Source: Oligoflexia bacterium (GTDB taxonomy: Bacteria; Bdellovibrionota; UBA1018). Taken from it: a stretch of DNA of 25,715 bases. The notes beneath the pieces were generated by a model. That model did no database searches, was not told the DNA's origin, and worked only from the letters and a program-made list of their open reading frames with translations. How positions within the stretch are numbered: position 1 is the stretch's first letter; each line of letters opens with the position of its first letter. This document shows positions 2,967 to 5,949 of the stretch, in pieces. Location: the NCBI GenBank assembly GCA_043732485.1, contig JAYTHP010000200.1:1-25715 (forward strand). Direction: 5' to 3'. Made by a program: the position numbers and the translations under genes.

Positions 2967-3270
2967 CGGGGGCTGAGGCATGTGGCTTGACGAGGGTTAA
3001 GGGTGGCCTCTCAGTGTGGATCAAACTCCGATTTAAAGCGCTTGGTCGGCGGTAGTGGCTCGGCAAGCAGGTCATGGGAAACCTTGCTCACGCTGTCTCG
3101 TGACCGCTTGCTTGCAAGCGCACTGTGGCTTGAACTTTGGGAGTCCCCCCCTCCAGCGGTGGGATCGCTCGCGGGGCTGAGGTCTTTTTGACTTTCTTGC
3201 GAGTTCCTGCTGGAGACCTTACTGCTGCTGTAGGCATTCACGGAGCTCAGCTCTCGCAGGTTGCGCAAAT
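2967..3270. repeat. ~304-bp direct repeat, copy 1 (3' half of orphan gene 1 plus ~44 nt downstream)
   Basis: Aligns to 5386-5690. By hand count there are 18 mismatches over the 260 coding nt (3011-3270 vs 5431-5690, ~93%). Confidence 0.95.
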
Positions 3271-3493
3271 GGTCAAGATGCTGGGCGAAGGTCTTTTCTG
3301 GTACGGCAGGCGACTGGCAGTCGCTTCCGGGGCGGGAGAAGCAGGCTCCCGCATAGACCTCAGGACTAAGGGTCAGGGTGCCAAGCAGCGTGGTGAGGGC
3401 CCAGGCTGCGGACCTTGCCAATTTTTGGTCGGTTTTCGAGGAGGTTTTGTTCGTGTTCAGGTTATTGCGGAACGTCTTGAAGAGGCTGCTCAT
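3011..3493 (-). CDS. Secreted orphan protein 1 (160 aa): long signal peptide, cryptic GxxxS N-terminus, Ser-rich tail with NLS-like motif
   Basis: ATG 3493 is preceded by AAGGAG. A K/N/T-rich n-region is followed by the h-region AAWALTTLLGTLTL, then EVYA|GACFSRP. The C-terminus is PLPPTKRFKSEFDPH. The frame is conserved with paralog 4. Confidence 0.75.
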   Translation of the reverse strand: MSSLFKTFRNNLNTNKTSSKTDQKLARSAAWALTTLLGTLTLSPEVYAGACFSRPGSDCQSPAVPEKTFAQHLDHLRNLRELSSVNAYSSSKVSSRNSQESQKDLSPASDPTAGGGDSQSSSHSALASKRSRDSVSKVSHDLLAEPLPPTKRFKSEFDPH

Positions 3494-3728
3494 AAGGGTT
3501 CTCCTTGGTTTGCCGAGGACGATTAATAGTGAGATTTGCAAAAAATCAACTGAGGGTAGGGGTCTAGGAGAGGGGCGGCTGACCCAGGGTGCTTGAGTCT
3601 ACGAATGATGGAGGGGCAGACCAGCCGCGGCCTCTCGGTCTTTGAGGTCTTATTTGCCTGCAGACTCGCGGCGGTTAAACCCACCCAATTCGCGGCTCAA
3701 TCCTTCCTAGGGCAGTGCGACGCGCTGA

Positions 3729-4211
3729 CTAGTTCGGGCTACTTTGAGCCGGAGAGTGGTTGGTTGGGAGTCGCCGTAGTCTGTGGTTCTCGGGGCTATC
3801 TTCGGGGCTCGCTAGAGCACCACGCTCATCACGCTGAGTGGGTGGATTGCCGTCAGAGGATCGCCGTTCGCTCCCGCCTGCCCGCTGCCTGAGCGCTTCG
3901 CGCAGCCATTCCACATGCTGGTCGGTCACCTGGCTGTTTTTTAAGTCAAGCGAGGTGGGGCGGGTGTTGATCTGGTTTGGTGCGCGGTCGTAGGGCACGG
4001 ACTTGTCTTCGGTGGGGCGCACGCCGCCGGGTGACAGGTTTCGATCCGCGAGGGTTTGTGACTGGGGTTGCGAGTTGATTGCCCCGGCATGAATTTCGGT
4101 CACCACACCAAGCGTCGTTGTTAAGGTCAAACCGGTCAACGTGAGCTTACTGAGGTAGAAGGAGCGGGACTGGTACAGTTTTTGATAGAGTTTCAGGATA
4201 TTTTTACGCAT
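3729..4211 (-). CDS. Secreted orphan protein 2 (160 aa) with cryptic GxxxS N-terminus and one LRR-like motif
   Basis: ATG 4211 follows AGGAAAGGG. The protein reads MRKNILKL...LTLTGLTLTTTLGVVTEIHA|GAINSQP, with internal TSLDLKNSQVTDQHVEWLREAL. Confidence 0.7.
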   Translation of the reverse strand: MRKNILKLYQKLYQSRSFYLSKLTLTGLTLTTTLGVVTEIHAGAINSQPQSQTLADRNLSPGGVRPTEDKSVPYDRAPNQINTRPTSLDLKNSQVTDQHVEWLREALRQRAGGSERRSSDGNPPTQRDERGALASPEDSPENHRLRRLPTNHSPAQSSPN

Positions 4212-4529
4212 ATTTTTTCCCTTTCCTGGGGTTAACGCGAAATCGCGGGAGGTGTCTGATCCTAGACTACCTGGTTCTAGATCGTCTGCAAACCGTTTTC
4301 TCTGTCCCCTTAATAGGATCTCGAGACGTGTAAGCACTCTTATTGAGGTTAAAGCCTTTCTGAGGCTAGGGGAGAGAGGGGAAGGCTTCGCGCTGAGGAG
4401 TAGTCCTGAGCGCCTCTCTCTGAGGCTCGAGCAGCAGGAGAGTGCTTAAGCTCTTACCGCCAGCCTCACGGTCTCGTACCACGCCCTGGCAACATGCTTT
4501 GGCACAATGAGGCTTTGAGGTCAAACCCT

Positions 4530-4994
4530 TTAAGGAGCTTGATCAACCACGCCCAGAGGCCCCTTCAGGGAAAGCCCTGAGTGTTCAGGGGCAGGAGGTG
4601 TTGGCGCCATGACTTCCTCATGCGCCTTAGGGATTGAGGTGATGCGATTTCTGAGCGGGTCTAAGCGCTTCTCGCTGTTGTCTCGGCTTCTAAAGTTAGG
4701 GTTTCGCGGGGTCATGGGATCGATTTTAAAGTGATCGATCTTGGTGAAGTCGCGGATGTCCGGGCTTGTGCCGCTACTTCTTGCGGTCGAGGAGCCGCTC
4801 GTTTCAGTGTGGGGCTTCAATCCCCCGCGCTCCGACGCCTTGTGCTCGCTTCCCACGCTCGCATACAAGAGAGGGGAAGTGGACAGCGAGAGGCCTGCAA
4901 ACATCGTCAGCACGGCCCGCAGATGCAGTGAAGTGAAGGCGCGGGTCGAGTAAGGGGTGGCTTTTGCTGAGTTCAAGTTTAAGTTTTTACGCAT
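4530..4994 (-). CDS. Secreted orphan protein 3 (154 aa)
   Basis: ATG 4994 follows AGAGG. It starts MRKN like gene 2, has the h-region AVLTMFAGLSLSTSPLLYA|SVGS, and contains RLDPLRNRITSIP. Confidence 0.7.
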   Translation of the reverse strand: MRKNLNLNSAKATPYSTRAFTSLHLRAVLTMFAGLSLSTSPLLYASVGSEHKASERGGLKPHTETSGSSTARSSGTSPDIRDFTKIDHFKIDPMTPRNPNFRSRDNSEKRLDPLRNRITSIPKAHEEVMAPTPPAPEHSGLSLKGPLGVVDQAP

Positions 4995-5226
4995 CGGGGT
5001 CTACCTCTCTTTTTACTTGTTTTTCATAACTGCTTTTGCGTCAATTGTTTTTAGAGTGGATCAGGCAGATTGTGCGCAGAGTCAGCAGTGATGGGGTTCA
5101 CCGGAGCTTGCCTGAGCCATCGCTTGTTTTCCGGATCCTCTCTCCAAAACCTCTTTCTGCTCGCTTCGTTGGTCCCTAAACTCCTCTGTACTCCTAGCTT
5201 TTCAATGCCCCAGGAGTCACCTGCTC

Positions 5227-5271
5227 ACAGATCACCTGTTCATGAACATTCATCATGAACAGGTGATCTGT
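5227..5271. other. Perfect 19-bp inverted repeat with 7-nt loop in the intergenic region between orphan genes 4 and 3
   Basis: ACAGATCACCTGTTCATGA (5227-5245) - ACATTCA - TCATGAACAGGTGATCTGT (5253-5271). Confidence 0.9.
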
Positions 5272-5385
5272 AACCTACGATCCGTGAGCAGTGCTTCAGG
5301 CGCCATCAAGCTGAAATCGTCCGAAACGATTCATGGGGTGCTGTTGTCGCTTATGCTTGAGCTCGTCGATCCGAAAGACTCTGAG

Positions 5386-5690
5386 CGGGGGCTGAGGCAT
5401 GTGGCTTGACGAGGGTTAAGGGTGGGCCACTCAGTGTGGATCAAACTCCGATTTTAAGCGCTTGGTCGGCGGCAGCGGCTCGGTAAGCAGGTCAGGGGAA
5501 ACCAGTCTCACGCTGTCTCGCGACCGCTCGCTTGCAAGCCCACTGTGGCTTGAACTTTGGGAGACCCCCCCCCCCGCGGTGGGATCGCTCGCGGGGCTGA
5601 GGTCTTTTTGACTTTCTTGCGAGGTCCTGCTGGAGACCTTACTGCTGCTGTAGGCATTCACGGAGCTCAGCTCCTGCGGGTTGCGCAAAT
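5386..5690. repeat. ~305-bp direct repeat, copy 2 (3' half of orphan gene 4 plus downstream flank)
   Basis: Matches 2967-3270 at an offset of ~2420 nt. Confidence 0.95.
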
Positions 5691-5949
5691 TGTCCTTAAG
5701 ATTCAGGCTCGTCAGGTGTGGCATGTAGTGCAATTGCTTTATCAAAGGATGTGTGCTGGAGCTTTCCACCTTATCAGGCTTGGACTGAGCTCCCCCTGCG
5801 AAAGTGGACGAGCTACTGAGCAGCTGGGTCGCAATCGTCAATCCGAGCACCAAGATCTTAGCGGACATTAAATTGGGGGAGTTTTCAACTTTTCGTGCTA
5901 ACTTTATATTATTTTTTGTCATAGAATCTACCAGAAGGTTACCTTTCAT
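5431..5949 (-). CDS. Secreted orphan protein 4 (172 aa; alternative start 5922) with cryptic GxxxSK N-terminus, one LRR motif and the shared NLS-like tail
   Basis: The h-region ILVLGLTIATQLL is followed by SSTFA|GGAQSKP and HLTSLNLKDNL. The C-terminus PLPPTKRLKSEFDPH is near-identical to that of gene 1. Confidence 0.75.
   Translation of the reverse strand: MKGNLLVDSMTKNNIKLARKVENSPNLMSAKILVLGLTIATQLLSSSSTFAGGAQSKPDKVESSSTHPLIKQLHYMPHLTSLNLKDNLRNPQELSSVNAYSSSKVSSRTSQESQKDLSPASDPTAGGGVSQSSSHSGLASERSRDSVRLVSPDLLTEPLPPTKRLKSEFDPH

Follow-up and report, generated by a model that had tools for sequence, protein, structure and literature searches.

Can the routine removal of an export leader in a bacterium expose an N-terminus that a eukaryotic cell would lipidate? 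This question is raised by the 25,715-nucleotide window analysed here, which is the whole of contig JAYTHP010000200.1 (C200 in our numbering) from the assembly of an Oligoflexia bacterium (GCA_043732485.1). On its minus strand lie four co-oriented open reading frames (ORFs) at 3011-3493, 3729-4211, 4530-4994 and 5431-5949, here called genes 1 to 4. All of them begin with a Sec leader (48, 42, 45 and 51 amino acids, ending in VYA, IHA, LYA and TFA, respectively), and in genes 1, 2 and 4 the leader is directly followed by a tag of the type G-x-x-x-S-[KRQ]-P. A preceding sequence-only reading had proposed that signal peptidase I unmasks here a motif for eukaryotic N-myristoyltransferase (NMT). 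Our own ORF calls placed the four leader-bearing genes and the three motifs at the coordinates claimed, and gene 3 lies outside the motif, as had been said, with the mature start SVGSE. Since the motif is enriched behind predicted cuts in the rest of the genome as well, we lean, by a modest degree, towards the view that signal peptidase I exposes N-termini which a host NMT then lipidates. The array genes probably encode small Sec-exported effectors with disordered mature parts.

3011..3493, minus strand: gene 1, 160 amino acids, ATG behind AGGAG; 48-residue Sec leader and 112-residue low-complexity mature part
3350..3493, minus strand: leader of gene 1, with the signal peptidase I cut predicted behind VYA
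3329..3349, minus strand: GACFSRP of gene 1 (Gly+1, Cys+3, Ser+5, Arg+6), candidate myristoylation and S-acylation tag
3032..3052, minus strand: basic motif PPTKRFK of gene 1
3729..4211, minus strand: gene 2, 160 amino acids; 42-residue leader and 118-residue low-complexity mature part
4065..4085, minus strand: GAINSQP of gene 2 after the predicted cut IHA (Gly+1, Ser+5; Cys and basic +6 absent)
4530..4994, minus strand: gene 3, 154 amino acids; 45-residue leader, mature form starting with Ser (SVGSE), no Gly tag
5431..5949, minus strand: gene 4, 172 amino acids (145 if the ATG at 5868 is used); leader and 121-residue low-complexity mature part
5776..5796, minus strand: GGAQSKP of gene 4 after the predicted cut TFA (Gly+1, Ser+5, Lys+6)
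5452..5472, minus strand: basic motif PPTKRLK of gene 4, a copy of PPTKRFK

Judged by its residues, GAINSQP ranks as the weakest of the three tags because it has neither a Cys nor a basic residue at +6. The mature parts of the four genes comprise 109-121 amino acids with 44-50% S/P/T/Q/N/G and 14-21% hydrophobic residues. Neither a Pfam family over cut-off nor an NCBIfam match was obtained for any of the four proteins, and in both databases an AvrPphB/YopT-like cysteine protease domain was not found in them. The hexamer coding scores are 4.1, 19.8, 14.3 and 13.7 for genes 1 to 4, that of gene 1 being weak. The start of gene 4 is uncertain, as our gene caller favoured the ATG at 5868, and its single-sequence AlphaFold model is uninformative (mean predicted local distance difference test score 53.7). 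Scans for promoters and terminators added nothing. The motifs PPTKRFK and PPTKRLK may represent a monopartite type of nuclear localisation signal, which they resemble; a total of 654,502 residues contains 73 instances of the pattern P-x(1-3)-K-[KR]-x-[KR].

Cut sites were predicted with a generative model of our own, which was trained on 140 strong leaders of the source genome with omission of the four array genes and of every residue after the cut. The posterior for an Ala|Gly cut is 0.93 in gene 1, 0.87 in gene 2 and 0.78 in gene 4, where a cut after GGA receives 0.22; the Ala|Ser cut of gene 3 (LYA|S) reaches 0.93. Removal of the leader by signal peptidase I is predicted to leave Gly+1 in genes 1, 2 and 4, which counts as support because the model is blind to the residues after the cut. 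With scores at the 85th-90th percentile of all genes, the array leaders are plausible, not strong. A crude first rule had cut genes 1 and 2 after AGA, two residues past the site of the trained model. A double-glycine/C39 leader was considered and set aside by eye. No lipobox with Cys+1 was found in the array; an early Cys is present in gene 1 only, with none in genes 2, 3 and 4, and its context EVYAGAC does not match the lipobox.

The main test of the motif used one best site per called gene, with cuts after Ala, Gly or Ser, a score of at least 5 and improved starts; window genes, proteins with membrane helices and lipobox proteins were excluded. Ser+5 was observed in 11 of 35 Gly-starting proteins compared to 31 of 262 other exported proteins (p=0.004) and to 79 of 862 internal Gly (p=0.0003). 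At +5/+6, Ser-Lys/Arg occurred in 4/35 versus 1/262 (p=0.0008) and the full tail S-[KRQ]-P in 2/35 versus 0/262 (p=0.014). Score thresholds of 3 and 7 left the direction unchanged, and a register scan has its maximum at +5. When the 2140 called ORFs are taken in their long forms, A-G-x-x-x-S-[KRQ]-P is found six times, five times at a predicted cut and three times in the window; its occurrence at cuts exceeds chance. G-x-C-x-S-[KR] was found in three called ORFs, always at a predicted cut (one weakly scored). The genome-wide enrichment on which the sequence-only reading had made its proposal depend is thus seen with the array's three motif genes left aside; over the tests, p lies near 0.004 for Ser+5 and between 0.0001 and 0.002 for Ser-Lys/Arg. 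These values do not stem from a single pre-set protocol, as the analysis was refined after a weak first pass; the motif was fixed beforehand.

Outside the window, the tag occurs on different kinds of proteins. Genes or gene relics of an LRR family carry GLCCSRM, GNSLSRS, GATFSQP, GVAFSQP, GSAFSQP, GACVSKE and GVSWSYP, an IBR-bearing protein starts with GSSSSNL after the predicted cut, and orphans show GQSASRP, GTGFSRL, GGGPSRM and GGGHSKP. In a deaminase-like orphan (C61:3534-5063), for which no full-length relative was found, the leader and the tag GPCLSKP are accompanied by a long linker of low complexity, and the body is cytidine-deaminase-like with two domains. This list is descriptive: some carriers were found via the motif, and GATFSQP, GSAFSQP and GGGHSKP lie at the model's second-best site. 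We propose that the tag is a minority address label in this secretome, present on a total of about 15 genes and gene relics.

How would such a label work? Signal peptidase I is predicted to strip the leader and to leave Gly+1 on the products of genes 1, 2 and 4. The mature protein would then leave the periplasm, most likely via the type II system of the genome, and enter the host cytosol in the way of the F-box-like LRR and IBR proteins; this destination is suggested because those proteins have no target elsewhere. There, host NMT would acylate the free Gly post-translationally, using Ser+5 and the basic +6, and Cys+3 of gene 1 would be S-acylated afterwards. The lipid anchor would keep the disordered tail at a host membrane, in genes 1 and 4 in competition with the basic nuclear signal. 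Other effectors of the genome would expose Met or other residues.

Published enzymology is in accordance with the last step. All three tags fit the consensus GX2XXS with a non-acidic second residue, and cleaved effectors are myristoylated post-translationally, also in yeast (PMC2708883). NMT1 prefers a basic aa7, and the peptide crystallised with HsNMT1 is GNCFSKPR, from whose first seven residues GACFSRP differs by two substitutions (PMC7048800). Regarding the second step, some Legionella type II substrates get into the host cytoplasm (PMC6617341).

The source genome itself has a eukaryote-associated look. It comprises 2.58 Mb in 250 contigs and is 89% complete, which applies to all absences from it given here and below. 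Its coding density is 74% with our gene caller, with many LRR fragments. A type II secretion cluster is encoded with GspD and GspE above the NCBIfam cut-offs as well as the C, F, G, J, L and M domains, in addition to type IV pilus genes, flagellar genes and an outer-membrane efflux protein. The secretins detected number four, namely GspD, PilQ and two encoded next to Tad-type genes; the cut-off for the type III secretin SctC is not reached by any of them, and TssC and VirB4 gave no match. The LRR family consists of 45 called, leader-bearing pieces with an F-box-like N-terminal region, whose top Pfam and PDB matches are F-boxes, below cut-off here; 25 of the 45 are shorter than 260 amino acids, and more than half are short or broken. 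These genes lie on contigs C40, C141, C19, C90, C114, C226, C242 and others. Of 75 family genomes, 8 gave matches to an LRR query, and the source genome had more of them (29) than any other. Ankyrin proteins number six, all with a predicted leader; in the family such proteins are widespread (24 of 31) and no distinguishing mark. IBR-domain proteins with a leader are located at C176:6380-15285, C219:2782-6377 and C153:6945-10121, one of them also with ankyrin repeats, and are candidates for secreted RBR-type ubiquitin ligases. Because LRR, ankyrin and IBR proteins with signal peptides are combined with a type II secretion system, we infer a eukaryote-associated lifestyle. The Bdellovibrionota are a phylum known for preying on bacteria.

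Regarding the origin of the DNA, most best relatives of the ProA encoded on the window contig belong to the Bdellovibrionota (50-55% identity). No congener was present among the relatives searched, and a 16S gene was not found. Contigs from sequencing run X1, a sediment study and possibly the source, span the stretch with zero mismatched letters. Glacier runs yielded only short, low-depth pieces at 99%, too near-identical to reveal selection, and no RNA dataset was among the runs listed as containing window DNA.

Gly+1 could also be acylated by the bacterium itself. A periplasmic, AatD-like enzyme would then generate surface lipoproteins or mark cargo for a TolC-type exporter. In favour of this, CexE matures to GGGNS and is N-acylated at Gly after Sec export (PMC7943197), gene 4 likewise starts with GG, and the outer-membrane efflux protein mentioned above is available. 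AatD, however, needs Gly+1 and partly Gly+2, and a +5 Ser mutant was still acylated (PMC7943197); it leaves Ser+5 and the basic +6 unexplained, because Gly alone suffices. With two Pfam models and no AatD query, only one Lnt-type and one nitrilase-type gene were detected, and none of the best 40 of 282 plasmid records matching an Lnt query was an AatD. Such an enzyme would moreover hit KatG and other ordinary Gly-starting proteins. Bacterial acylation is therefore regarded as highly improbable.

In a further explanation, G-x-x-x-S-[KRQ]-P serves sorting or processing within the bacterium, its reader being the type II or Tad machinery, a chaperone or a periplasmic peptidase; alternatively, the motif acts as a mimic to which host NMT or N-degron readers bind with no lipid being attached. 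This explanation would account for the restriction of the motif to a subset of exported, lineage-specific proteins and for the frequent Pro+7 and Phe+4, which go beyond the published consensus (PMC4692089, PMC2708883). With 3 of 38 effector-like proteins by best site, the motif is not a general export signal, and its positions agree with the NMT preferences at aa6 and aa7. We consider this explanation distinctly unlikely, and host lipidation remains our preferred reading.

The history of the array bears on how many independent tags it holds. The remaining features of the window needed here are:

2967..3274, minus strand: duplicated segment, copy 1, pairs with 5386-5694
5386..5694, minus strand: duplicated segment, copy 2, pairs with 2967-3274
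5227..5271, no strand: perfect 19-nucleotide inverted repeat with a 7-nucleotide loop between genes 4 and 3
17110..19485, minus strand: ankyrin-repeat protein with Sec leader, mature form would start with Met (context)

Genes 1 and 4 have 281 nucleotides in common at 91% and 40 nucleotides at 100%, corresponding to the last 88 codons and about 45 nucleotides past the stop, including the basic, nuclear-signal-like tail. They are not independent because of this recent 3' duplication, and the statement of the sequence-only reading that the sequences flanking the motifs do not align is wrong for this pair. Overall protein identity is 56%; the 5' parts with leaders and first residues showed no convincing alignment.

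Convincing homologues of the array genes outside the source genome were not found in the searches run. Exact sequences of genes 2, 3 and 4, the three queried, are singleton clusters in a collection of 15 billion proteins. Gene 4 has no orthologue in 30 relatives, no usable match in the ESM Atlas and, among 1.84 billion representatives, gene 1 as its sole convincing relative; a second match to a repeat protein (5e-5) was judged compositional. For genes 2 and 3, three weak matches each were obtained in 74 family genomes, all with stops inside; for gene 3 the homology search covered these genomes, and a further search with gene 2 was also empty. Searches with the carriers on C238 and C61 gave no orthologue for a conservation test; relatives match the deaminase core only.

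Adjoining the array on the minus strand (367-1853 and 2128-2436) are fragments of a flavin-dependent (FAD) monooxygenase, an ORF that may be an acyltransferase-3 piece, judged by resemblance, and an HTH_37-type regulator; this points to a decaying region. Just downstream of the array, a 33-nucleotide inverted repeat (2690-2722 / 2832-2864, 82% complementary, 109 nucleotides apart) could be a small non-autonomous element. On the plus strand, 22833-23954 encodes another orphan, whose leader is strong, whose start is Ser/Gly-rich and whose middle is acidic; Pfam gave no match. A 56-codon ORF at 16979-17149 (plus strand) overlaps with the terminal part of the oppositely oriented ankyrin gene and shows a leader-like stretch followed by GGSLSRP; this ORF is probably spurious and its match due to chance.

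Relatives were covered with 337 kb of genome G004, 1.13 of about 2.0 Mb of G043 and 195 kb of scattered loci from other LRR-rich relatives. In control DNA, the counts for Ser+5 were 4/18 and 0/13, and Ser-[KRQ] was absent (0/31). Suggestive cases in G043 are GLCPSKF and, on an F-box-like protein, GCGMSAL. In three LRR proteins of G046 (L147, L152, L159) hardly any residues separate the leader from the F-box, which frequently begins at Gly, with no consistent Ser+5; one of them exceeds the Pfam cut-off for F-boxes. A search with a profile built from ten leader-plus-tag modules gave five new matches in the source genome and, in 74 relatives, no non-training match better than E 0.005; 2 of 28 inspected profile loci in relatives had Gly-x-x-x-Ser-[KRQ] behind a leader. 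Raw counts of the DNA pattern for A-G-x-C-x-S-basic (57 matches in five LRR-rich relatives) were discarded, as 1 of 53 viewed in context was a leader-bearing gene. A second pattern is not taken as evidence either: it matched 36 times in five LRR-rich relatives and 69 times in five LRR-poor ones, about 7 and 4 of these matches, respectively, were leader-like by eye, and one checked ended after 11 residues.

Several findings weigh against host lipidation. In the first pass Ser+5 was present in 5/19 Gly-starting proteins versus 11/140 (p=0.027), with p=0.18 for Ser/Thr and +8 equally high at stricter thresholds, and a second Ser-basic peak appeared at +9 in two analyses (5 versus 8 at +5). Among 38 homology-defined effectors with a leader, 8 have Gly+1, and Ser+5 occurs in 3/8 versus 3/30; this effector-only test is not significant (p=0.094, permutation 0.19). 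The comparison of the source genome with pooled control DNA is borderline (p 0.05-0.14), and in G043 Ser+5 is found in 4/18 versus 11/167 (p=0.044), but with p=0.36 against internal Gly. The periplasmic housekeeping protein KatG starts with GAEES and fits the motif, and G080, a relative with no LRR match, has a leader followed by GPIFSRP. Because these two and the probably spurious ORF at 16979-17149 match as well, single motif matches are not diagnostic. A cut two residues later receives a posterior of 0.07 in gene 1 and 0.10 in gene 2. Five of the listed carriers are broken genes and several are paralogues, and with 5 synonymous and 12 non-synonymous changes the 88 duplicated codons evolve near neutrally. 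All F-box calls in the source genome are below cut-off, and an ATP/ADP translocase was not found. Type II systems normally carry folded cargo (PMC6617341), and the array tails look disordered. Pro+2 is called prohibited in a review (PMC4692089), which counts against GPCLSKP. Of the earlier claim of Sec-exported, host-lipidated effectors, the enrichment, the eukaryote-like repertoire and the type II system hold up, whereas the effector-only test, the weak result in G043 and the borderline controls do not bear it out.

Could the motif then be without lipid function? It would result from a common Gly+1, Ser-rich tails, one copied leader-plus-seven-residue module and the decay of several genes. 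Gly is indeed the second commonest +1 residue (19/159), an LRR-family gene on another part of the genome has a leader similar to that of gene 1 (p=0.004 by shuffling, for one pair out of 21), and three LRR paralogues carry GxxFSQP. DNA identity among three LRR paralogues is 0.67-0.76 over the seven tag codons, 0.38-0.49 before and 0.22-0.38 after them, a peak that is partly due to the selection of examples. The many short LRR pieces, the near-neutral duplicate and the effector-only result point in the same direction. The effect of composition, however, is removed by the internal-Gly controls and by shuffling residues +2..+20 within each protein with Gly-Cys starts dropped as probable lipoproteins (Ser 10/34, p=0.004; Ser-Lys/Arg 4/34, p=0.0006). 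In a relaxed six-frame census the counts are 22/96 versus 88/1023, and shadow ORFs show no excess (9/80 versus 107/837, p=0.71). Furthermore, the Ser-Lys/Arg carriers of the main test (C61, C160, C238, C132) look unrelated. Ser+5 is encoded by TCN in most carriers and by AGY in C61 and C238; with two codon families in use, the AGY carriers are not simple copies of one codon. A motif without lipid function is thus considered unlikely, although it keeps appreciable weight.

A wider reading includes the exported proteins that do not start with Gly. Met+1 is predicted in 5/38 effector-like compared to 2/140 other exported proteins (p=0.005) and possibly mimics a fresh eukaryotic N-terminus. Examples are the ankyrin protein at 17110-19485 of the window, C141:7628-9889 and C25:3806-5077, and several LRR genes of relatives start likewise. 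Tentatively, and with more doubt than conviction, a clade of the Bdellovibrionota may be pictured as having moved from bacterial prey to eukaryotic cells, with signal peptidase I setting N-termini for sorting by the host, either as Gly-x-x-x-Ser-basic, to be myristoylated and in some cases also S-acylated, or as Met. The same N-terminal code may be hidden in other protist symbionts that rely on Sec plus type II secretion, where predictors restricted to Met-Gly would miss it. If true, Sec and type II secretion are enough for any bacterium to direct proteins to host membranes, with no injectisome required, routine leader removal doubles as a switch to these membranes, and standard myristoylation predictors overlook all Sec-masked tags. 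A simple screen, in which the cut is predicted and the new N-terminus scored, is offered for orphan secretomes of uncultured protist symbionts. The finding also points to eukaryote-associated members within a bacteria-preying phylum.

In the literature considered, the bacterial effectors documented as lipidated by a host are injected proteins, which either begin with Met-Gly or cleave themselves (PMC4951486, PMC2708883). Unmasking of a host NMT motif by signal peptidase I was not described in the full-text library searched, in which most subscription journals are missing, nor in passages of PMC10450907, PMC4951486, PMC12858966, PMC4550359 and bioRxiv 10.1101/719211. The sequence-only reading, which knew of no description of this route, missed the bacterial precedent of CexE and AatD (PMC7943197). 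Parts of the route are in print (AvrPphB, CexE/AatD, Babela); the combined route was not found.

CexE and Aap share Sec export, a signal peptidase I cut and a Gly acylation site with the proposed route, CexE even Ser+5; their AatD, which goes with an aatPABC operon, is in contrast bacterial and periplasmic, with a dispensable Ser+5 (PMC7943197), and a second Lnt-like gene was not found here. Babela massiliensis, an amoeba parasite, resembles the source bacterium in its many ankyrin, F-box and RING proteins with Sec leaders and in type II secretion as the likely exit, its signal-peptide ankyrins being accompanied by a type II system only (PMC4378268). It belongs to another phylum, and 'myristoyl' is absent from that paper. 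AvrRpm1, AvrB, AvrPto, HopZ and XopJ likewise use a eukaryotic myristoylation motif for membrane targeting by host NMT; there, the motif follows the initiator Met without a Sec leader, in plant pathogens (PMC4951486). Closest in outcome are AvrPphB, ORF4 and NopT, in which removal of an N-terminal piece also exposes a Gly, with Ser in position P5' and a Cys close by, followed by myristoylation and palmitoylation in the host after translation (PMC2708883). Their cleavage is autoproteolytic inside the host after type III injection (PMC2708883), whereas here the housekeeping signal peptidase I would act in the bacterium, the cargo consists of disordered orphans, LRR or IBR proteins, and none of the four secretins detected exceeds the type III cut-off. 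The proposed route, for which the support is statistical, would accordingly work like host lipidation of the AvrPphB type while standing outside that family.

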